From a virus: 44,806 nucleotides of DNA. How positions within the stretch are numbered: the first letter of the stretch is position 1; each line of letters starts with the position of its first letter. The notes below the pieces were generated by a model. It did not search any database and was not told the DNA's origin. It worked only from the letters and a program-made list of their open reading frames with translations. The stretch lies in IMG/VR virus record IMGVR_UViG_3300045988_038198, positions 1 to 44,806 of that record; one strand, 5' to 3'. Below, piece by piece: positions 1,859-29,839 of the stretch. Made by a program: the position numbers and the translations under genes.

Positions 1859-3346
1859 ATGGGACTTATAACAACACTAAAAAGGTGGTTTAACATGATA
1901 TTCAAAAAACAAGCCGAAGAGGATTTTAATATCCAGGCGGCAGAATTTCCAGAAATGGAATCACTGATTAACCGGTGCGCGAACATTTACAGAGGAGTTC
2001 CGGAATGGTTAGACGACAAGAATAATATCAAGACGATTAATTTTGCAAAATCTGTGTGTTCTGAGACTGCCAGACTTGCAACACTGGCGATTGGCATTCA
2101 GATAGATGGTTCTGCAAGGGCAACATGGTTACAGGAGCAGATTGACAAGGTATATTTTCAAATCCGGCACTGGGTAGAATATGGCTGTGCTTACGGAACA
2201 GTGTTCATTAAGCCAAACGGTGAGAGCCTTGACATATTCACTCCGGCAGATGTGATGATTGTGGATTACGACAATCAGGAGATCAAAGGGATTATATTCA
2301 AGGATTCTTATACTGTTGGACGAAAATACTACACAAGGCTCGAATATCATAGATTTGTTGAGACTACAATAGATGGTGTGACAACTTATCCGTATTATGT
2401 TTCTAACAGAGCCTATGTATCAAAATCTCCTCAAAGCATCGGAGACAAGATTGACCTTAAACAGACAAAGTGGGCTGACCTAATGGCAGACACTCCGCCG
2501 ATTATTAAGGCGAACGGTGAGAAGCTGGACGGGCCTCTGTACGGAGTACTGCGGACACCGCAGGCTAACAATGTGGATATTAGCACGCCACTGGGACTTC
2601 CGATATTTGCGGAAGCTATAGAAGAATTAAAAGACCTGGACATTGCATACAGCCGAAATGCAAAAGAAATCCTTGATTCTAAGCGGACTGTTCTAGCAGA
2701 TGACAGATTGTTGATGCCGAGTGGTTCACCTGTCTCCGCTATGACACCACAGGCAATGGAACATAGATGTTCAGAAATGAGCTTGCCGGATTATGTAAAA
2801 AATGTATTCGGACAGGATGAAAAAGAGTTTTACAAGGAAATCAATCCAATTCTCAACACAGATACCCGTATAAGCGGCATAAACGCCATTTTAAGCCAGT
2901 TAGGGTACAAGATTGGATTCTCCAACGGGTACTTTGTTTTTAATGAAAAAACCGGTATGGTGACGGCTACGCAGGTAGAAGCAGACGACCGACGGACAAT
3001 CCAGTTGATTAAGGATGTTAGAGATAAGCTAGAATGTTGCTTGAATGACACTATATACGCCCTAAATACATTTGCAGATTTGTATGGCATTGCACCAGAT
3101 TCTAACTGGATTTACGACGAAAAGAAAAAGAAATATGTCCAGTATATAGTTAATTATGATTTTGGCGATTTTACATACAACAGAGAAGAAGACAGGATGG
3201 CGTGGTACAGTTATGTAAATTCCGGGCATGTAGCATTTTGGCGTTATTTGATGAAATTTTATGGATATACCGAAGAGGAAGCAAAAAAAATTTCACAAGA
3301 AGCCAAAGAGGAAAACAAAACGAGAGGTTTTTTTGAAGAAGAGTAA
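1859..3346 (+). CDS. Portal protein (SPP1 gp6-like size and position)
   Basis: A 495-aa ORF immediately after the terminase and before the MuF-like gene. Confidence 0.8.
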   Translation: MGLITTLKRWFNMIFKKQAEEDFNIQAAEFPEMESLINRCANIYRGVPEWLDDKNNIKTINFAKSVCSETARLATLAIGIQIDGSARATWLQEQIDKVYFQIRHWVEYGCAYGTVFIKPNGESLDIFTPADVMIVDYDNQEIKGIIFKDSYTVGRKYYTRLEYHRFVETTIDGVTTYPYYVSNRAYVSKSPQSIGDKIDLKQTKWADLMADTPPIIKANGEKLDGPLYGVLRTPQANNVDISTPLGLPIFAEAIEELKDLDIAYSRNAKEILDSKRTVLADDRLLMPSGSPVSAMTPQAMEHRCSEMSLPDYVKNVFGQDEKEFYKEINPILNTDTRISGINAILSQLGYKIGFSNGYFVFNEKTGMVTATQVEADDRRTIQLIKDVRDKLECCLNDTIYALNTFADLYGIAPDSNWIYDEKKKKYVQYIVNYDFGDFTYNREEDRMAWYSYVNSGHVAFWRYLMKFYGYTEEEAKKISQEAKEENKTRGFFEEE

Positions 3347-3412
3347 TGAGATTAGAGCAATGGTTAAAGAAGCCCAGCCAGACGAGCCGAAACTGTTTGG
3401 AGATGAGTAATT

Positions 3413-4642
3413 ATGTTAAGCCCAGAATATTTACGCCGGATAACAGAGGGCAGTGAGCAGATTGCGGAAGAACTGCATCAATATATCATCTCTGAGATCG
3501 TGTCTCGAATGATGACAAGAATCGGCAGAGGTGAGGATTATATTCTGACTAATGCCGATGCGTGGAGAATCAGAACGCTACAGGAATCTGGTGAGCTGCT
3601 AGAGGACATTCTGGCAGAATTATCCAGATACACCAAACGCGAACAGCAGGAACTCCTTGAAGCGTTTGAAGATGCCGGTATCACTGCGATGAACTACGAT
3701 GATAAGATATACAAAGCGGCAGGATTAAGTCCCGTACCGCTCGAACAGTCTCCAGCTATGATAAGACTCATGGAGCGAAATATGCTTGCTACAATGGGAG
3801 AATGGCGGAACTTCACAAGGGCAACTGCAAATGTGGCTCAAAGGCTTTATATTGAGCAATGCGACCTTGCATACAATCATGTGATGACTGGAGCAGTTGG
3901 GTATACGCAAGCCATCAAAGAGGCGGTTAATAACGTTGTGAGTGATGGTGTTACGGTCACATATCCATCTGGCAGAAAAGACACGATCGAAACAGCAGTC
4001 GCACGTTCTGTCAGAACTGGTGTGGCACAGGCTACTGGAGATATATCCCTCAAGCGCATGGAAGAAATGGACTGGGATTTAGTTCTGGTCAGTGCTCACA
4101 TGGGAGCCAGAACAGGTGACGGCGGTGAGAACCCGGGAAATCACGCATGGTGGCAAGGAAAGATATACTCTCGTTCTGGCAAGAGCAAGAAATTTCCGCC
4201 ATTCTCATTGACCGGATACGGAACGGCAAGTGGATTGTCAGGGGTCAACTGTCGGCATAGTTTTGGAGCCAGTGATGGAGAATTTAATCCCTATACAGAA
4301 CTATCAGCGCAGGACAAAGCCAACAAAGGTAAACAGTACGAAAAAGAACAGCGACAGCGCACTTATGAGCGAAGAATCCGAAAAACAAAGCGTGAAGTCC
4401 TTGGAATGCAAGCGGCGGTTGATAACTGCAAAGACGAACAGGCAAAATTCGCATTACAGCAAGACCTTGACCGGAAGTCTTATCTTTTGCAGAAACAAAA
4501 TGCTGCATACAAGGAATACTGCAAGCAGAATGATCTAAGAGAGCTGCAAGACCGACTTATGATAGCTAAATGGAACCACCAGAATGCTGCAAAAGTTAGA
4601 GGAGCGGCAAAGAGATATAAAACAGCAAAGGGGATTGACTGA
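3413..4642 (+). CDS. Head morphogenesis / minor capsid protein, Mu F / SPP1 gp7 family
   Basis: Position after the portal gene, the conserved GVNCRHS motif, and a K/R/Q/E-rich coiled-coil tail. Confidence 0.8.
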   Translation: MLSPEYLRRITEGSEQIAEELHQYIISEIVSRMMTRIGRGEDYILTNADAWRIRTLQESGELLEDILAELSRYTKREQQELLEAFEDAGITAMNYDDKIYKAAGLSPVPLEQSPAMIRLMERNMLATMGEWRNFTRATANVAQRLYIEQCDLAYNHVMTGAVGYTQAIKEAVNNVVSDGVTVTYPSGRKDTIETAVARSVRTGVAQATGDISLKRMEEMDWDLVLVSAHMGARTGDGGENPGNHAWWQGKIYSRSGKSKKFPPFSLTGYGTASGLSGVNCRHSFGASDGEFNPYTELSAQDKANKGKQYEKEQRQRTYERRIRKTKREVLGMQAAVDNCKDEQAKFALQQDLDRKSYLLQKQNAAYKEYCKQNDLRELQDRLMIAKWNHQNAAKVRGAAKRYKTAKGID

Positions 4643-5025
4643 TGGATAGATGGGAATATTTCAACCCTAATCCTGTTAAGGATAAGAGAACAGGAGATTG
4701 CGTTGTCCGGGCAATATGCAAGGCAACCGGTTTTGACTGGGAAACGGTATTCGCCGGATTAATGATACAGGCATGTGCTCTGTCAGATATGCCGAGTGCA
4801 AATTATGTCTGGGGAGCGTACCTCTATAAACATGGGTACAGACGCAAACTGATTGAGCAATCAGAACAGTATATCTATACAGTCAATGATTTTTGCGCAG
4901 ACCATCCGACAGGTACATACATTTTATGCATAGATGGCCATGCAGTGACGGTACAGAATGGTAAATATTACGATACATGGGATAGTGGTAATGAGATCCC
5001 GGTATACTACTGGGAAAAGGAGTAG
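4642..5025 (+). CDS. Hypothetical protein, possible Cys/His (papain-like) fold
   Basis: ATGA overlap with the MuF gene stop. Contains GDCVVRAI ... IDGHAVTV ... DTWD. Confidence 0.6.
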   Translation: MDRWEYFNPNPVKDKRTGDCVVRAICKATGFDWETVFAGLMIQACALSDMPSANYVWGAYLYKHGYRRKLIEQSEQYIYTVNDFCADHPTGTYILCIDGHAVTVQNGKYYDTWDSGNEIPVYYWEKE

Positions 5026-5029
5026 CTAA

Positions 5030-5335
5030 ATGAGTATATCAGAATTTGTACAGATTTTCCTTTCTATCTGCGGAGGGGTGTCTATTGTCGGAGGCGCGGC
5101 AGCCGTAATCTTTAAGTGGATTACTCCGGCATTTCGACTCAACAAGCGAGTTGAGACACTGGAAGAACATGATAAGCGAGATTACGAGAGTCTTCAGAGG
5201 ATCGCGGAACGTGATTCATTGATTTTGGAAGTGCTATCAACCATGTTGGATAGTCAGATTAGTGGGAATAATGTAGAAGAATTAAAAAAAACAAAACAGA
5301 AGCTTACAAATTATCTTGCGCAGAATCAACGTTAG
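5030..5335 (+). CDS. Membrane-anchored coiled-coil protein
   Basis: N-terminal TM helix (IFLSICGGVSIVGGAAAVIF) followed by a charged helical region. Confidence 0.6.
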   Translation: MSISEFVQIFLSICGGVSIVGGAAAVIFKWITPAFRLNKRVETLEEHDKRDYESLQRIAERDSLILEVLSTMLDSQISGNNVEELKKTKQKLTNYLAQNQR

Positions 5336-5355
5336 CATTAGTAAGGGGTATGCTC

Positions 5356-5556
5356 ATGAAATTATATGTGTTCACGAAGAAAGATATAGACAGATTCTTG
5401 ATAGAGTGTAATTTCACACCGGACGAAGAAAGATTGTTCCGACTGAGATGTAAAGAACATACGCTCGAATACTGCGCTGAGCAGATGAACGTGAGTATAT
5501 CTACCGTAAAGAGATTAAGCAGAAGAGTAAACAGTAAGATTATAAAAGTATGCTAA
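5356..5556 (+). CDS. Small sigma-70 region-4 / LuxR-like HTH protein (66 aa)
   Basis: RBS AAGGGG lies 7 nt before the ATG at 5356. The sequence LTPDEERLFRLRCKEHTLEYCAEQMNVSISTVKRLSRRV fits a region-4-type HTH. Confidence 0.6.
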   Translation: MKLYVFTKKDIDRFLIECNFTPDEERLFRLRCKEHTLEYCAEQMNVSISTVKRLSRRVNSKIIKVC

Positions 5557-5581
5557 AAGGAGAGGCAATTTACCCCTCCTT
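5557..5581. terminator. Bidirectional hairpin between convergent genes
   Basis: AAGGAGAGG-caatttac-CCCCTCCTT (8 of 9 pairs) followed by a T-run on + and preceded by an A-run. Confidence 0.6.
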
Positions 5582-5585
5582 CTTT

Positions 5586-5753
5586 TTATGCAAAATCTTC
5601 TTTTACAGCTCTTTCAAGCAATAAAATTACGTATTCTGGTGGATTTCTTTTACCGCCTTCCCAGTTTTCAATTGTCCTTTTGGGAATTTTGTATTTATCG
5701 GAAAAAGCCTGCTGGCTTAACCCGGAAATTAATCTAATTTCTTTGATGCTCAT
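5586..5753 (-). CDS. XRE-type HTH protein, 55 aa (aca-like terminal gene of the leftward cassette)
   Basis: Hand translation gives MSIKEIRLISGLSQQAFSDKYKIPKRTIENWEGGKRNPPEYVILLLERAVKEDFA. It is below the 60-aa cutoff of the ORF track. RBS is GAAAGGAAC. Confidence 0.7.
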   Translation of the reverse strand: MSIKEIRLISGLSQQAFSDKYKIPKRTIENWEGGKRNPPEYVILLLERAVKEDFA

Positions 5754-5775
5754 ATTGTTCCTTTCTTTCTTCTTT

Positions 5776-5991
5776 TTATTTCCAACGCTTCACAATGCCT
5801 CCGTCGTAATGATCGGGCGTGTCCTCGTCCGGATTGATGCTTTCCAGCACGTAAAACTCCGATCTGTGTTTCTTTTCGCACCTTGTTAGATGCTCTCATT
5901 GTCCATCCGCTTCCTGAAGGGCTTCTTCTTTGTTCTCAAATTCATCGGTGAAACAATCACCGTCTGTATAATCCATAATTATATACTTCAT
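5776..5991 (-). CDS. Small acidic protein whose ORF is interrupted by an in-frame TGA at 5896..5898
   Basis: GGAGG lies 7-8 nt before the ATG at 5991. Triplet-by-triplet reading gives MKYIIMDYTDGDCFTDEFENKEEALQEADGQ*EHLTRCEKKHRSEFYVLESINPDEDTPDHYDGGIVKRWK*. Confidence 0.55.
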
Positions 5992-6002
5992 TTTCCTGCC
6001 TC

Positions 6003-6236
6003 CTAGTTAATCCCGATAACTTTGACTCGGGTCTGTAAAATATCCTCCGTGGGCTCCAGGATTTCAAAGTCAACGATAAGCTCCTCGCCGTCCTGATATA
6101 CGGCGATTGCTCCGGACTCTAACAGCTCTTCCCCGTCCCCGTCTCCGTACCAGAGCTGACCGAAATAGTATTCCTCTCCGACCTCTATTGTGTCGTTCTG
6201 TCCGTAAACGTAAGATAATGTGTTTAATTTTATCAT
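6003..6236 (-). CDS. Small, highly acidic protein (77 aa; 17 D/E vs 3 K/R)
   Basis: ORF-track ORF. RBS AAGGAGG lies 8 nt before the ATG. It is the first gene after the leftward promoter. Confidence 0.7.
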   Translation of the reverse strand: MIKLNTLSYVYGQNDTIEVGEEYYFGQLWYGDGDGEELLESGAIAVYQDGEELIVDFEILEPTEDILQTRVKVIGIN

Positions 6237-6281
6237 TTTTTATTCCTCCTTGATTTTTTGTTCTTCCCTGTTTCTGATGTT

Positions 6282-6310
6282 ATCATACCACTCAGTGGGT
6301 GATATGTCAA
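6282..6310 (-). promoter_or_regulatory. Leftward sigma-70-type promoter TTGACA-17-TATGAT with the palindrome CCACTcAGTGG in its spacer
   Basis: On the + strand, tgtcaa is at 6305..6310 and atcata at 6282..6287. The palindrome is at 6288..6298. Confidence 0.7.
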
Positions 6311-6387
6311 TACTTTTTTGATACTTTTTTGAACTTCTTAGATTAATACTTTTATGCAAAAATATAATCAGAAAGGCGGTGTATAAG

Positions 6388-6858
6388 ATGGCATTATATA
6401 ACAATCCTTATCAATATAGTTTTGGCGTTCCGGGGCAGATGAACCAGTTCCAGCAACAGCCTGTCCAGATTCCAGCTCAACCAGTACAGCAACCACAGCA
6501 GAATAATAGCGGTATCCTGTGGGTATCCGGCGAAGTCGGCGCAAAATCCTATCTGGTAGCACCCGGGACAAGTGTTTTGCTGATGGACAGCGAAAGTGAA
6601 AAGTTCTACATAAAATCCACAGATGTATCCGGTATGCCACAACCACTGCGGACATTTGAATACCACGAGGTAGGTTCTCAGATGCCGCCTAAGCAGCCTG
6701 TTCAGAACATGGACAGTAAATATGTTACTCGACAGGAATACGATGATTTGAAAGGCAAATACGAAGTTATCATAAACCGATTAAATTCATTTTCTGAACC
6801 TGTTAGGGCTAATACCGTACAGGAATCAGCGACCAAGGGAGGAAATGCAGATGAGTAA
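6388..6858 (+). CDS. Q/P-rich N-terminus protein (156 aa), function unknown
   Basis: ATG at 6388 follows AAAGGCGG. N-terminus is MALYNNPYQYSFGVPGQMNQFQQQPVQIPAQPVQQPQQNN. Confidence 0.65.
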   Translation: MALYNNPYQYSFGVPGQMNQFQQQPVQIPAQPVQQPQQNNSGILWVSGEVGAKSYLVAPGTSVLLMDSESEKFYIKSTDVSGMPQPLRTFEYHEVGSQMPPKQPVQNMDSKYVTRQEYDDLKGKYEVIINRLNSFSEPVRANTVQESATKGGNADE

Positions 6859-7072
6859 TCCATTATTTAACGCACTTGGCGGCGGGATGCCGCAGGGAAA
6901 CGGACCAATGCAGATGATACAACAGTTTATGCAGTTTAAACAGAATTTTAAGGGAGATCCGAAAGCAGAAGTCGAGAAAATGTTGCAGTCTGGAAAGATT
7001 TCTCAACAGCAGCTCAATCAAGTTCAACAGATGGCAGGGCAATTCCAGCACATGTTGAAAGGAATGAAATAG
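6851..7072 (+). CDS. Q/M-rich small protein (73 aa; 15 Q, 9 M)
   Basis: ATG at 6851 lies 8 nt after AAGGGAGG and overlaps the stop of the previous gene. Confidence 0.6.
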   Translation: MSNPLFNALGGGMPQGNGPMQMIQQFMQFKQNFKGDPKAEVEKMLQSGKISQQQLNQVQQMAGQFQHMLKGMK

Positions 7073-7079
7073 TACATTA

Positions 7080-7095
7080 CAATCTGGCCAGATTG
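7080..7095. repeat. Perfect 16-bp palindrome CAATCTGGCCAGATTG
   Basis: Read directly in the 7073..7124 spacer. Confidence 0.8.
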
Positions 7096-7124
7096 ATGTA
7101 AATACACAAAAAGGAGATTATATT

Positions 7125-7904
7125 ATGGATGGAAATTATAGCTTAGCAGATATTGCCGCTGCTACTGGAAACGGTAGAAATAATGACGGCATGTTTGGCG
7201 GAGATGGTAGCTGGTGGATTATTGTTTTATTCATTTTTGCTTTCTTCGGATGGGGAAACAACGGCTGGGGCAATAATGGAAACGGCGGCGGATATGCAGC
7301 CACAGCAGCTACTCAGGCAGATATTCAGAGAGGATTTGATAATTCCGCAGTAATCAGCAAACTTGACGGAATCAATAGCGGCCTGTGCGATGGCTTCTAC
7401 GCCATGAATAACGGTATGCTTACCGGATTTAACGGAATCAACACCAACATCATGCAGACTGGCTTCGGCATCCAGCAGGCTATTAACGCTGACACTGTAG
7501 CAAATATGCAGAATACCAATGCACTCCAGGCACAGCTTGCAAACTGCTGCTGCGAAACCAGAGAAGCAATCCAGGGCATAAACTATAATATGGCACAGAA
7601 TACCTGTGCATTGCAGAACACCATGAACAGTAACACAAGAGACATTATCGACAGCCAGAACGCCGGAACAAGGGCAATCCTTGATTACCTGTGCAACGAG
7701 AAGATTTCTTCCTTACAGGCTGAAAACAATGATCTCAGACGTGCTGCTTCTCAGGACCGCCAGAGCGCACTTCTCACAACTGCAATGGCTTCACAGACAC
7801 AGCAGCTCATTAATGCGATTAATCCAGCACCGATTCCAGCATATCAGGTTCCTAACCCGAACACATATTACGGATGTGGATGCAATGCTGGGTGCAATTG
7901 TTAA
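7125..7904 (+). CDS. N/Q/G-rich membrane protein with a Cys-rich tail (259 aa)
   Basis: RBS AAAGGAG. Contains a TM segment (WWIIVLFIFAFFGW), GWGNNGWGNNGNGGG, an internal CCCE and the C-terminus YYGCGCNAGCNC. Confidence 0.7.
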   Translation: MDGNYSLADIAAATGNGRNNDGMFGGDGSWWIIVLFIFAFFGWGNNGWGNNGNGGGYAATAATQADIQRGFDNSAVISKLDGINSGLCDGFYAMNNGMLTGFNGINTNIMQTGFGIQQAINADTVANMQNTNALQAQLANCCCETREAIQGINYNMAQNTCALQNTMNSNTRDIIDSQNAGTRAILDYLCNEKISSLQAENNDLRRAASQDRQSALLTTAMASQTQQLINAINPAPIPAYQVPNPNTYYGCGCNAGCNC

Positions 7905-9051: not shown

Positions 9052-9330
9052 GTAATTGTGCAGCAGGAAGCACAAGTAAAACGGTTGTTTTGACATTTTC
9101 GTTTTAATCCTCCTTTCTTTAATTTAGTAGCTGGTGCGCACGCTTTAATGGAAAGTTAAACAGGTCCGAATCCTGTCGTGCGTATTTGCCGTCTGGCACG
9201 CAAGATGGCTCACCTCCTTGATTAAGGTTTTTGTTATTTATACTTTTCTTTTAAAAGAAATAAATATCCGAAACAACTCGTGGCAGGCATAACACGTTAA
9301 ATACCTTGCTAACCCGGGAATCCGGGTTAA

Positions 9331-9403
9331 TGGAATGTAGCTCAGTAGGAAGAGCGGAGATGCTGAATTCTTGACGTCAGAGGTTCAAGTCCTCTCATTC
9401 CAT
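9331..9403 (+). tRNA. tRNA-like gene with a non-canonical anticodon arm; isotype not assignable
   Basis: Acceptor stem TGGAATG/CATTCCA, U8, D arm GCTC-AGTAGGAA-GAGC and T arm AGAGG-TTCAAGT-CCTCT are canonical. Positions 27-43 (GAGAT-GCTGAAT-TCTTG) do not pair. The best alternative is GAGA/TCTT with an 8-nt loop. Confidence 0.5.
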
Positions 9404-9480
9404 TACCCTGCCAGTGGTCTAACTGGCTTAATCCATTTACCTGCGGCGGCAGGTCAATAAACACGACCAGGAGGATATAT

Positions 9481-26515: not shown

Positions 26516-26538
26516 GTTAGTCACAGTTAGTCACAAAT
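26516..26538 (+). repeat. Tandem GTTAGTCACA GTTAGTCACA AAT overlapping the int stop codon
   Basis: Read directly. It encodes the VTNCD* end of the integrase on the - strand. Confidence 0.8.
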
Positions 26539-27698
26539 GGGACTTTTATTTTCTCAATCTCTGTGCGGAGTTCTTCCAATGTCCTGTGTCCATATACCGC
26601 GTTTGTAACATCTCCACCAAAAGAGTGACCCAGCATTCGCTTCCGGTCGTTCTCCCGGACGCCGTATTTTTCACATAACATAGAAAAAGTATGCCGGCAG
26701 TCGTGTGGCGTGTGTTTCGGATCGCCAACAATTCCAAGACGTTCAAGCGTAGGATAGAACAGGGCGTTGCGGTGGTGCTGCTGAGTATATACACAGAGCT
26801 TCCCACCTTGAGTAAGAACCTTTTGCTTAGCAAATTCGTATACCGCCGAATGAATTGGTACTACGCGGTCTTTTCCTGCCTTAGTCTTGATCCCGCCCTG
26901 AAAGTATCTCTCTTCCAAGTTAGTCGTCAACTTAAGTACTTCGCCGATTCTCCAGCCAGAATAACACATGATTAATATAAGCTGCACTTCCGGATCAGCA
27001 GAATTCTTCCAGAGAATTTTTAACTCATTGTCAGAAAATGGTGTTCCATGTTCAGTGTCGTCATCCGCGTTGACTTTTACATACAAAGCCTTGTTTTCTG
27101 TTACAATTTCTGAGTAAACAGCGTATTTATACATCTGCTTGAACAGCGTAAGAATTGCCATAAGGCTCTGACGTTTTAACGGGCAGTCATCAATTACCTT
27201 TTGCAGATCAGGCGCTTTTAAATCCTCGAATACACGATTATACAGAGCCGTGCAGTTTGAGTAAGCGGTCTGGTAAGCTATCTTTGAACTATAAGAAAGT
27301 TTTGAACCCTCTGGAAACTTCCATGCGTAAAACTTCTTATATACCTCTGAAAACGTCAATTTCTTGATTTCCGGGTGTTTATCCTCGACACCCTTGATTG
27401 TATTGTAGTCAGCAATCAAACGAGTAACAAGGGTATCTACGTCCGTTGTAGGTGATATCTCAAGGTCTCGTTCCATCCCTGGCTGATATGTTCCTGCCTT
27501 GTATGCGGTCAGTACAGTAAATCCTTTAATCCAGTCGTCTACATAGCAGATTGCAGGCGGTCGGACGGGCTTTCCGGTCTTTTCATTCAGTACTGCCGGA
27601 GGATGGACCGCAAATGGATTCCTACGGTTGCCGCCCAGGTACCGTATTGTTCCGAAACTGTTAGGGAGCTTCGGGTATTTCTTTCTTTTCTTCGCCAT
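26517..27698 (-). CDS. int: Tyrosine recombinase / integrase (393 aa)
   Basis: MAKKRKKYPKLPNSFG start follows an RBS. Contains HDCRHTF, MLGHSFGG and VYGHRT catalytic-type motifs. ORF-track ORF was trimmed to M48. Confidence 0.85.
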   Translation of the reverse strand: MAKKRKKYPKLPNSFGTIRYLGGNRRNPFAVHPPAVLNEKTGKPVRPPAICYVDDWIKGFTVLTAYKAGTYQPGMERDLEISPTTDVDTLVTRLIADYNTIKGVEDKHPEIKKLTFSEVYKKFYAWKFPEGSKLSYSSKIAYQTAYSNCTALYNRVFEDLKAPDLQKVIDDCPLKRQSLMAILTLFKQMYKYAVYSEIVTENKALYVKVNADDDTEHGTPFSDNELKILWKNSADPEVQLILIMCYSGWRIGEVLKLTTNLEERYFQGGIKTKAGKDRVVPIHSAVYEFAKQKVLTQGGKLCVYTQQHHRNALFYPTLERLGIVGDPKHTPHDCRHTFSMLCEKYGVRENDRKRMLGHSFGGDVTNAVYGHRTLEELRTEIEKIKVPFVTNCD

Positions 27699-27835
27699 TT
27701 TTATTCCCTCTTTCTGTAGCTGTATTTTAGGTATAAAAATAACAGCCGAACAAACTTTCTGACTTGTCCGACTGCTCCGAAGATGATACAATATGTTTTG
27801 CCAGAATATTACATTTCTTCGGAGATGTATAAACG

Positions 27836-27869
27836 CCACCTCGGTACGCCAATGCCGGGGTGGTTTTTT
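27836..27869. terminator. Hairpin CCACCTCGG-N10-CCGGGGTGG with a T6 run on the + strand
   Basis: Lies 8 nt downstream of the stop of 27877..28920(-). The U-tract is strong only in the + orientation. Confidence 0.55.
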
Positions 27870-29266: not shown

Positions 29267-29383
29267 ATGGATTATAAGAAAGAGATTATTGAAATGATAG
29301 AAAAATGTGATAATGAGGGCAAGTTAAAATTTGTCTATACGATTCTTATCAAATATCTAAAATCAAAGAAGCAAGGGGATTAA
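29267..29383 (+). CDS. 38-aa ORF downstream of the SOS-box promoter
   Basis: RBS AGGGAGGG lies 6 nt before the ATG. It translates to MDYKKEIIEMIEKCDNEGKLKFVYTILIKYLKSKKQGD. Confidence 0.5.
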   Translation: MDYKKEIIEMIEKCDNEGKLKFVYTILIKYLKSKKQGD

Positions 29384-29390
29384 CCCTTGC
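29371..29390. terminator. Shared bidirectional hairpin GCAAGGG-gattaa-CCCTTGC holding both convergent stop codons in its loop
   Basis: TAA at 29381..29383 (+) and TAA at 29382..29380 (-). T-runs on both sides. Confidence 0.65.
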
Positions 29391-29724
29391 TCTTTTTGTT
29401 TAACGATGAAACTATTTGTTTTATTGCTTTCTTATCTTCTTTATCGAGTGCTTTATATTCCTCGATAAAGTCTAAGACGTCAGGTTCTGACATAAGATTT
29501 CCAATTATGGTTGCATAATCGTCATCGCTTTTAGAACCCATGAGGTATGTCGGTGTTACTTCCAGAGCGCCGCATAGAAGTTCGATAGTGTCCATATCTG
29601 GCTTGCACTTATCTTTTTCCCAGTCACTAATTGAATTGTGTTTTGCGTTGATTTTTTCTGCGAGTTGTTTCTGAGTTAATTTCTTTGCTGTTCTGGCTTG
29701 CTTGATTTTCTCGCCAAATGTCAT
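29380..29724 (-). CDS. cI-like repressor, XRE HTH, 114 aa, no peptidase domain
   Basis: AAGGAGG RBS lies 9 nt before the ATG at 29724. Contains MTFGEKIKQARTAKKLTQKQLAEKINAKHNSISDWE. It is divergent from the cro-like gene. Confidence 0.8.
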   Translation of the reverse strand: MTFGEKIKQARTAKKLTQKQLAEKINAKHNSISDWEKDKCKPDMDTIELLCGALEVTPTYLMGSKSDDDYATIIGNLMSEPDVLDFIEEYKALDKEDKKAIKQIVSSLNKKSKG

Positions 29725-29749
29725 TATCGGTTTCCTCCTTTCATGATTA

Positions 29750-29778
29750 ATAATAATATAGAAATTTCGAACTGTCAA
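29750..29778 (-). promoter_or_regulatory. Leftward repressor promoter TTGACA-17-TATTAT
   Basis: On the + strand, tgtcaa is at 29773..29778 and ataata at 29750..29755. The spacer contains TTCGAA (29766..29771). Confidence 0.6.
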
Positions 29779-29784
29779 TAAAAT

Positions 29785-29805
29785 AATTTCGATTTTCTCG
29801 AAATT
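29785..29805. promoter_or_regulatory. Operator: perfect inverted repeat AATTTCGA-ttttc-TCGAAATT between the divergent -35 boxes
   Basis: Read directly. Related TTCGAA sites lie at 29766, 29817 and 29826. Confidence 0.65.
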
Positions 29806-29810
29806 TATTC

Positions 29811-29839
29811 TTGACATTCGAACATTTCGAAGTTATACT
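29811..29839 (+). promoter_or_regulatory. Rightward early promoter TTGACA-17-TATACT with two TTCGAA palindromes in the spacer
   Basis: -35 at 29811..29816 and -10 at 29834..29839. Confidence 0.7.

Follow-up and report, generated by a model that had tools for sequence, protein, structure and literature searches.

What is an antisense cassette of three short genes doing among the head genes of a phage? We addressed this question in a viral stretch of 44,806 nucleotides (IMG/VR virus record IMGVR_UViG_3300045988_038198, positions 1 to 44,806; hereafter the window, meaning this whole stretch), in which two acidic open reading frames (ORF1 and ORF2) and a gene for a helix-turn-helix (HTH) protein run against the late genes within the head-gene block. 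An initial annotation, made from the letters of the window, had interpreted this layout as that of an anti-CRISPR (acr-aca) operon. All features of the three-gene cassette were found where that annotation had placed them, and we compared them with about 90 related loci (80 IMG/VR loci anchored on the HTH gene together with loci found via ORF1). Positions 5555..6349 very probably form an autoregulated mobile accessory cassette. More specifically, they probably constitute an acr-aca type anti-defence operon, horizontally mobile and self-regulated, at a recombination hot spot between head-gene blocks, a function that we infer by association only. Anti-CRISPR activity of ORF1 or ORF2 in particular is a tentative assignment. 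What the annotation had drawn from layout alone thus gains support from comparison: the cassette is an optional insertion, its promoter, inverted repeat and HTH gene are constant while its cargo is swapped, and its cargo is linked to a homologue of the anti-CRISPR protein AcrIB3. The cassette has the following features (lengths in amino acids, aa, or base pairs, bp; D/E, acidic and K/R, basic residues).

5555..6349, minus strand: whole accessory cassette, an insertion relative to an empty-site relative, between conserved flanks
6311..6349, minus strand: A-rich upstream region with a tandem CAAAAAAGTAT (two copies)
6282..6310, minus strand: sigma-70-type promoter, TTGACA-17-TATGAT with a TG-extended -10, 11 of 12 consensus positions
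6285..6305: 21-bp imperfect inverted repeat, ATATCACCCA-C-TGAGTGGTAT, which fills the -35/-10 spacer and overlaps the -10
6237..6281, minus strand: 5' leader with an AAGGAGG ribosome-binding site
6003..6236, minus strand: ORF1, 77 aa, acidic (17 D/E, 3 K/R)
5776..5991, minus strand: ORF2, a 71-codon acidic gene with an in-frame TGA at codon 32 (5898..5896)
5586..5753, minus strand: 55-aa XRE/HTH_3 DNA-binding protein
5557..5581: GC-rich hairpin, AAGGAGGGGTAAATTGCCTCTCCTT then TTTAGC, directly after the stop of a converging plus-strand 68-aa gene

The cassette behaves as an optional unit at a hypervariable site. The human-gut phage record MT835739 (L001), a relative with an empty site, aligns to 4001..5554 and 6350..7500 of the window with ~50 bp between the two aligned parts. 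Between these flanks, the ~90 related loci have anything from 50 to 2820 bp, with more than 30 gene arrangements built from ~14 small protein families, and the flanks themselves are 85-100% identical among relatives. At the same site, MT839401 (L002) carries, in order, the promoter, a 119-aa gene, the HTH gene (83% nucleotide identity to that of the window), a second promoter copy, a 106-aa gene and a 97-aa gene. The HTH protein is the only family present in every occupied cassette, in a set of loci that was largely gathered by searching for it, and it stands alone (L039), last or in the middle of the cassette. The same promoter and 21-bp inverted repeat lie ahead of every cassette regardless of cargo, with the -35 and the operator kept, and a second promoter/operator copy precedes internal sub-operons in L002, L038 and L081. 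L017, L019 and L035 match the window with 100% identity across the 694 bp from ORF1 through ORF2 to the HTH gene, the TGA in ORF2 included; these loci (3102..4197) carry an additional 95-aa gene (p95), flanked by a 28-bp leader repeat, that the window lacks. On this alignment, the difference is a recent gain or loss of a single gene on the same allele and, because the leader repeat flanks p95 in L017, the repeated leader segment appears to mediate the gain and loss of cargo. The GC and AT skews are flipped over 5401..6600, which fits the minus-strand genes there. The empty-site relative L001 likewise has a hairpin at the cassette site, and for this reason the site may separate two late transcription units.

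The control region of the cassette is its most constant part together with the HTH gene. The promoter at 6310..6282 was the top-scoring site in a scan of 4500..7500, and the near-consensus sequence reported for it initially proved correct. The palindrome noted at 6288..6298, CCACTCAGTGG, is present but is larger than had been claimed, forming the core of the 21-bp inverted repeat, in which 8 of 10 pairs are complementary (calculated chance ~4e-4 per position). We compared this element over 86 promoter instances, which comprise 25 unique variants. Among these variants, 81% of cells were complementary in the correct register versus 32-39% at a one-base shift to either side, and the CAC and GTG cores showed no variation. 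Relatives include perfect 10-1-10 versions (ATATCACTCA-T-TGAGTGATAT), and L005-type cassettes, whose HTH protein is diverged, have another perfect palindrome, ATACCACCAA-A-TTGGTGGTAT. The 21-bp inverted repeat is thus the predicted operator for an HTH dimer. The sequence directly 5' of TTGACA, which ends in AAAAAAGTA, is kept in all promoter copies, and the A-rich region at 6311..6349 is possibly a UP-like element. As described initially, the first two ORFs have GGAGG-type ribosome-binding sites (AAGGAGG for ORF1, TAGGAGG for ORF2) and the HTH gene has a weaker one, GAAAGGAAC. The hairpin at the end of the cassette was likewise recovered, with an RNA fold of -17.7 kcal/mol (z = -3.2 versus shuffles); it is likely the terminator at the cassette 3' end, although a simple terminator scan did not call it, its T-run being short. 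A search of Rfam with 5300..6500 gave just two sub-threshold small-RNA matches and no CRISPR-repeat-like RNA.

The 55-aa protein at 5753..5586 is an XRE-type HTH protein, as had been proposed: it matches Pfam HTH_3 with E = 2.7e-7 and 31 bits against a curated cut-off of 23, and its ratio of nonsynonymous to synonymous substitution rates (dN/dS) is 0.12. Compared with all PDB chains (phmmer, E <= 1), it returned generic XRE, HigA and 434-repressor chains only and no Aca1, Aca2, Aca10 or AcrIIA1, and blastp against AcrIIA1 gave nothing; among named Aca proteins and AcrIIA1, the comparison covers these four. In PADLOC the protein matched generic HTH models only, including a weak match to 'Control_protein' (E = 0.04). 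A role as the controller (C) protein of a restriction-modification system was ruled out, there being no restriction or methylase genes in any cassette, and so was a DNA-binding anti-CRISPR of the CasPR type, as CasPRs have CapR and AP2 domains. We regard the HTH protein as a predicted autorepressor with an Aca-like role. In L084 and L090-L096 (for example L093, 3410..4168), the HTH lies at the C-terminus of proteins of 243-252 aa, behind an N-terminal domain of ~190 aa that has no annotation; these proteins may be cargo-regulator fusions.

Most cargo families of the cassettes are acidic, with mean net charges of -13 for ORF1, -9 for ORF2, -12 for p179, -13.5 for p147 and -10 for p64, and the proteins are 55-180 aa long, cytosolic and without enzymatic or membrane domains. 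Searched against Pfam, none of the cargo families gave a match at the curated cut-off and none gave an informative one. ORF1 has the size and composition initially reported (77 aa at 6236..6003, 17 D/E versus 3 K/R). Its homologues form 238 clusters at 90% identity, and among the 120 clusters listed these are unnamed, 'hypothetical protein' or Caudoviricetes entries of mostly 76-77 aa; a profile search of 1.84 billion representatives yielded 117 ORF1 clusters at 50% identity. The ORF2 family comprises 44 clusters, whose full-length members are 69-83 aa long, mostly 71 aa. Pairwise dN/dS was ~0.15 for ORF1 and ~0.2 for ORF2, and 0.14-0.25 for the cassette ORFs overall. On these data the ORF1 and ORF2 families are conserved, phage-only and under purifying selection.

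Neither acidic protein could be identified from its sequence, as had been anticipated, the family, PDB and fold searches being empty. Profile and Foldseek searches were run on both and gave no significant family or fold match, with a best Foldseek E of at least 0.01; BFVD was searched with ORF1 only. ORF1 had no match in Pfam, PHROGs, NCBIfam, PADLOC or PDB sequences. AlphaFold2 modelled it as a compact alpha/beta domain (pLDDT 85.7, pTM 0.76) without a Foldseek match at E <= 1e-3 in PDB or BFVD. Resemblances to PAS-like and ERH folds in the Foldseek searches lay below significance. For ORF2, Pfam, PHROGs, NCBIfam and PADLOC gave nothing usable, and PDB sequences gave no match; the family search gave one weak match, to phrog_1672 (function unknown), at 7.8e-4. 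An intact homologue of ORF2 (97% identical) was modelled as beta-beta-alpha-alpha-beta-beta (pLDDT 80.4), which had no match in PDB at E <= 1e-3. A similarity of ORF1 to AcrIB6 (blastp, 35% over 51 aa, E = 3.5e-4 in a 17-sequence database) was rejected as acidic composition bias, phmmer having found nothing. In some distant homologues (P0173, P0207, P0251, P0258 and P0195) the ORF1 domain is the C-terminus of a 136-248-aa protein, and several of these fusions include an HTH-like stretch (HTH_Tnp_1, E = 1.2e-3 in P0173); by eye, one fusion has an AbrB/SpoVT-like N-terminus, which Pfam did not confirm. Such fusions resemble known fusions of anti-CRISPR proteins to regulators, a likeness that is weak evidence.

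The in-frame TGA of ORF2 requires separate consideration. The initial description of ORF2 stands in its coordinates, the in-frame TGA and the acidic N-terminal half (10 D/E, 2 K/R), but its 71 codons include the TGA, which leaves 70 sense codons rather than the 71 first stated. Of 25 related loci, 21 read TGG at codon 32; the TGA is confined to the window and to L017, L019 and L035. TGA also terminates 11 of the 33 long ORFs of the window, from which it follows that the standard code is in use; together with the TGG in relatives, this ruled out TGA recoding or selenocysteine in ORF2. Read against its relatives, ORF2 is here a nonsense allele (W32stop, TGG to TGA) of an otherwise intact 71-aa gene, and it encodes a 31-aa N-terminal peptide only, unless the stop is read through. 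By the same argument ORF1 is the sole intact cargo gene in the window and a candidate anti-defence protein.

The link between the cassette and anti-defence functions comes from sister loci. In the cassettes of L005-L010 and L105-L112, the gene order is A3N (143 aa), HTH, ORF1 homologue, p64 and a 229-aa homologue of Cas5b (in L005 at 4439..5128). Two models matched the 229-aa protein, NCBIfam Cas5b, TIGR01895 (E = 7e-20, under the curated cut-off), and the one for the Cas5 N-terminal domain. With AcrIB3 it shares 33% identity over its full length (227 aa aligned; blastp E = 1e-41, phmmer E = 3e-38; AcrIB3 sequence as given in Katz et al., bioRxiv 10.1101/2023.06.24.545427, Table S2), with Clostridioides difficile Cas5b 24%, and with named cellular Cas5b proteins 35% at most. 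Relatives closer to it (46-99%) lie on contigs of at most ~82 kb, and a search of PDB sequences with it gave nothing. AcrIB3 is itself a homologue of Cas5; it becomes part of Cascade and abolishes type I-B interference in Listeria, and orphan viral cas genes have been put forward as markers of anti-defence loci (bioRxiv 10.1101/2023.06.24.545427). The AcrIB3-like viral Cas5 gene is absent from 5555..6349 and present only in the sister loci L005-L010 and L105-L168. The cargo family labelled A3N (L002, 2777..3097, minus strand; L005, 3133..3564, plus strand), whose proteins start MKKYNLSxIMKRAWELVKK, was considered as a member of AcrIIA3 and rejected: NF033948 matched its N-terminus only, far under the cut-off (E = 1.6e-4 and 0.019), and blastp gave 32% over 22 aa. 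A3N is a lead only, and the family is absent from the window.

A search of IMG/VR with the 229-aa protein found 64 loci, most of them from a different phage lineage. This second, unrelated lineage (L102, 1413..6098; L113-L167) has contigs of mostly 50-80 kb, many of ~77 kb, and carries an operon upstream of a putative small terminase gene that usually ends in the Cas5 homologue and often includes a GIY-YIG gene. In loci that reach the operon start, it is headed by a 64-aa Arc/ribbon-helix-helix (RHH)-like protein, and its promoter is TTGACG-17-TATAAT with three direct copies of GCATAGTTTAATAA. Its cargo, in ~30 arrangements, comprises ORF1 (92% identical to that of the window), ORF2, p60, p139, p68, p147, p64, p95 and p97. 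Of the 63 Cas5-bearing loci, 48 have a member of the ORF1 family and 19 one of the ORF2 family, always on the same strand and at most 1.5 kb upstream of the Cas5-like gene. The occurrence of ORF1 and ORF2 with Cas5 in two unrelated lineages, under two unrelated small regulators, strengthens the link to anti-defence. Table S3 of Katz et al. lists five contigs of the second lineage under predicted orphan viral cas5 (CAS-I-B) and gives Blautia_A as their host; this listing flags only the Cas5 gene, not its neighbours, and indicates the likely host group. A search of species genomes with the MuF-like protein of the window found relatives of 55-66% identity in metagenome-assembled genomes of uncultured Clostridia and in one of Bacteroides, which is probably mis-binned. 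On the strength of the Table S3 entries for the Cas5-lineage contigs, the likely host group is that of gut Lachnospiraceae such as Blautia.

If the cassette is an acr-aca type operon, it could work as follows. Host sigma-70 RNA polymerase would fire the promoter at 6310..6282 on DNA entry, and possibly also from the prophage, and ORF1, ORF2 and the HTH gene would be transcribed on one message ending at the 5557..5581 hairpin. ORF1 would then inhibit some component of host defence stoichiometrically, the type I-B effector (Cascade or Cas3) being the leading candidate, and ORF2 would act likewise where intact. The HTH protein would build up, bind the 21-bp inverted repeat as a dimer and shut the operon down, and new cargo would be gained or lost via recombination between the repeated promoter and leader sequences. 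Transcription timing, HTH-operator binding, inhibition of defence and target identity are thus inferred parts of this model. A bolder extension holds that ORF1 and intact ORF2 are new anti-CRISPR families, probably directed against type I-B and with folds unlike solved structures, that the HTH protein represents a new Aca family of Lachnospiraceae phages, and that the hot spot and the RHH-headed operon draw on a shared pool with about a dozen further undescribed inhibitor families; we regard this extension as possible but rather doubtful.

Several observations weigh against an anti-defence function. Nothing encoded in the window is homologous to a known anti-CRISPR or other anti-defence protein, and ORF1 and ORF2 gave no significant match in NCBIfam (its anti-CRISPR models included), PADLOC, PDB sequences and folds, or a set of 15 Listeria anti-CRISPR proteins. 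ORF2 is broken here, and hence at least ORF2 is dispensable in this phage. The Cas5 homologue of the sister loci is equally far from AcrIB3 (33%) and from cellular Cas5b (up to 35%), and linkage to one anti-CRISPR homologue does not settle what the genes beside it do: many acr-adjacent genes in the Listeria study showed no inhibition of CRISPR (bioRxiv 10.1101/2023.06.24.545427, Table S2). Furthermore, the related contigs come from related phages, so that the co-occurrence counts are not independent events, and covariation in the operator beyond column composition was not significant, 379 of 2000 shuffles reaching the observed value. Finally, the host is a predicted one, the best MuF match in species genomes being 64-66% identical.

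Among the alternatives, the cassette could be a moron for lysogenic conversion or superinfection exclusion, expressed from the prophage and shielding the lysogen from other phages or altering host physiology. The window is indeed a temperate siphovirus-type genome, with terminase, MuF-like minor capsid protein, endolysin, integrase, CI-like repressor and replication genes, of which two bear on lysogeny:

26517..27839: integrase
29380..29817: CI-like HTH protein

The anatomy of the cassette is also that of a classic moron: it brings a sigma-70 promoter and a hairpin of its own, points against the late genes and is there in some relatives but not in others. However, the small (55-180 aa), cytosolic and mostly strongly acidic cargo without enzymatic or membrane domains argues against it, no PADLOC defence model was matched besides the generic HTH models, and the sole cargo gene with an identifiable relative is the Cas5 homologue, which matches an anti-CRISPR. 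We consider a moron of this kind unlikely.

The proteins could instead be modulators of host takeover or phage development unrelated to defence, for instance small proteins that inhibit the RNA polymerase, nucleases or metabolism of the host, with an XRE-type switch in control. Small acidic phage proteins with orphan folds often inhibit diverse host proteins, ORF1 family domains are sometimes fused to DNA-binding-like segments, and the ORF2 model weakly and non-significantly resembles the folds of T7 Gp2 and T4 Dmd. These fold matches are, however, far from significance (best E 0.77; TM-score 0.31 for Gp2 and 0.48 for Dmd), core takeover functions are not expected to be optional and shuffled among close relatives, and the AcrIB3-like linkage points to defence. 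Such a role is therefore improbable.

A type II toxin-antitoxin pair of the HigBA or MqsRA style, with the HTH protein as antitoxin and an upstream small ORF as toxin, is very improbable. The HTH protein did give sub-threshold matches to the MqsA family (1.4e-5), Y4mF/HipB-like proteins (3e-4) and HigA-2 (PDB, 0.065), and a toxin-first gene order exists in HigBA systems. Yet the same HTH protein (76-100% identical) stands beside more than 10 unrelated partners and alone in L039, at 55 aa it is too short to include a toxin-binding domain, ORF1 and ORF2 both have a strongly acidic composition and no toxin family matches, and ORF2 is a nonsense allele while the HTH gene is retained. Chance ORFs or a decaying remnant, to which the premature stop in ORF2 might point, have next to no chance of accounting for 238 ORF1 and 44 ORF2 clusters of conserved length with dN/dS of 0.14-0.25, confident AlphaFold2 models, and a conserved promoter and conserved ribosome-binding sites. 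Thus, an anti-defence operon of the acr-aca type is the reading that we retain.

The surroundings of the cassette contain further features in their own right. One flank, conserved in all relatives, includes a gene that adjoins the cassette:

5350..5556, plus strand: 68-aa sigma-70 region 4-like protein

This protein matched Pfam Sigma70_r4 (5.8e-4), phrog_1190 'RNA polymerase sigma factor' (5.8e-6) and TIGR02937 (3.9e-5), and it may be a late-gene regulator encoded in the head-gene region. On the other side of the cassette, a 259-aa head-module protein (7125..7904, plus strand) is rich in Gly, Asn and Trp over an N-terminal stretch and in Cys at its C-terminal end (ending in YYGCGCNAGCNC), and a tRNA-Gln gene (anticodon CTG; 9330..9404, plus strand) lies within the head-morphogenesis module between a 186-aa gene and a Phage_scaffold-type gene. 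In the relative L012 (5593..7758) the MuF-like gene is interrupted by a 220-aa gene and a 55-aa RHH_3 gene, and L007 and L008 (1747..2298) carry an HNH/NUMOD homing endonuclease gene between head genes. The split MuF-like gene and the homing endonuclease in these relatives mark the head module as host to several independent mobile insertions.

To our knowledge, the anti-defence proteins of phages of gut Lachnospiraceae such as Blautia are almost unexplored. Gut Lachnospiraceae are abundant in people, and CRISPR-Cas of type I-B is common among them. The locus offers a shortlist of ~14 small protein families for guilt-by-association work, two candidate regulators with predicted operators, and, in the AcrIB3-like viral Cas5, a positive control from within. 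Should the anti-defence reading be true, the cargo would supply new inhibitors for type I-B genome-editing tools, the HTH protein and its operator would mark anti-defence loci in gut viromes, and unrelated phages of one host group would have one anti-defence gene pool in common. If the candidates fail, the locus is still a clear case of a modular, autoregulated moron hot spot.

How, then, does the cassette compare with known systems? Examples of acr-aca operons include those with Aca1 in Mu-like phages of Pseudomonas, with Aca2 in Pectobacterium phage ZF40 and with the RHH-type Aca14. In such operons, promoter-overlapping inverted repeats are bound by small HTH or RHH regulators, which may also control neighbouring operons (PMC13551039); two further papers deal with the same control logic (PMC8633003, PMC9410906). 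The cassette shares with them a strong, constitutive type of promoter in which an inverted repeat overlaps the core elements, a co-encoded small DNA-binding protein, variable, small and often acidic cargo without homologues, an operator reused before sub-operons, and a location within or beside morphogenesis genes. It differs in being antisense to the late genes, in that its HTH gene is not always last, in that the window is without a verified anti-CRISPR protein, and in that its HTH protein has no sequence match to Aca1, Aca2, Aca10 or AcrIIA1, repression here being predicted. Aca14 finds its parallel in the RHH-headed sister operon. The locus is thus a well-supported candidate of a kind already known and not a surprise.

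As with AcrIB3, the sister cassettes hold a solitary 229-aa Cas5b homologue, without other cas genes and from a phage-only clade; in contrast to AcrIB3, that gene lies outside this window and its predicted hosts are Blautia_A (Lachnospiraceae) rather than Listeria. The AcrIIA22 islands of gut Clostridia (CAG-217) and their prophages (PMC8545432) are likewise from human-gut clostridial phages and behave as hypervariable islands, but they lie at a prophage end or at the bacterial purF-radC site, their anchor is the anti-CRISPR gene itself, and there is no sequence relationship. Finally, the cassette resembles phage morons in being a discrete insertion between head genes, with its own promoter and hairpin and present or absent among relatives; unlike them, it has an autoregulator of its own beside cargo that can be exchanged, the more specific pattern of acr-aca operons.

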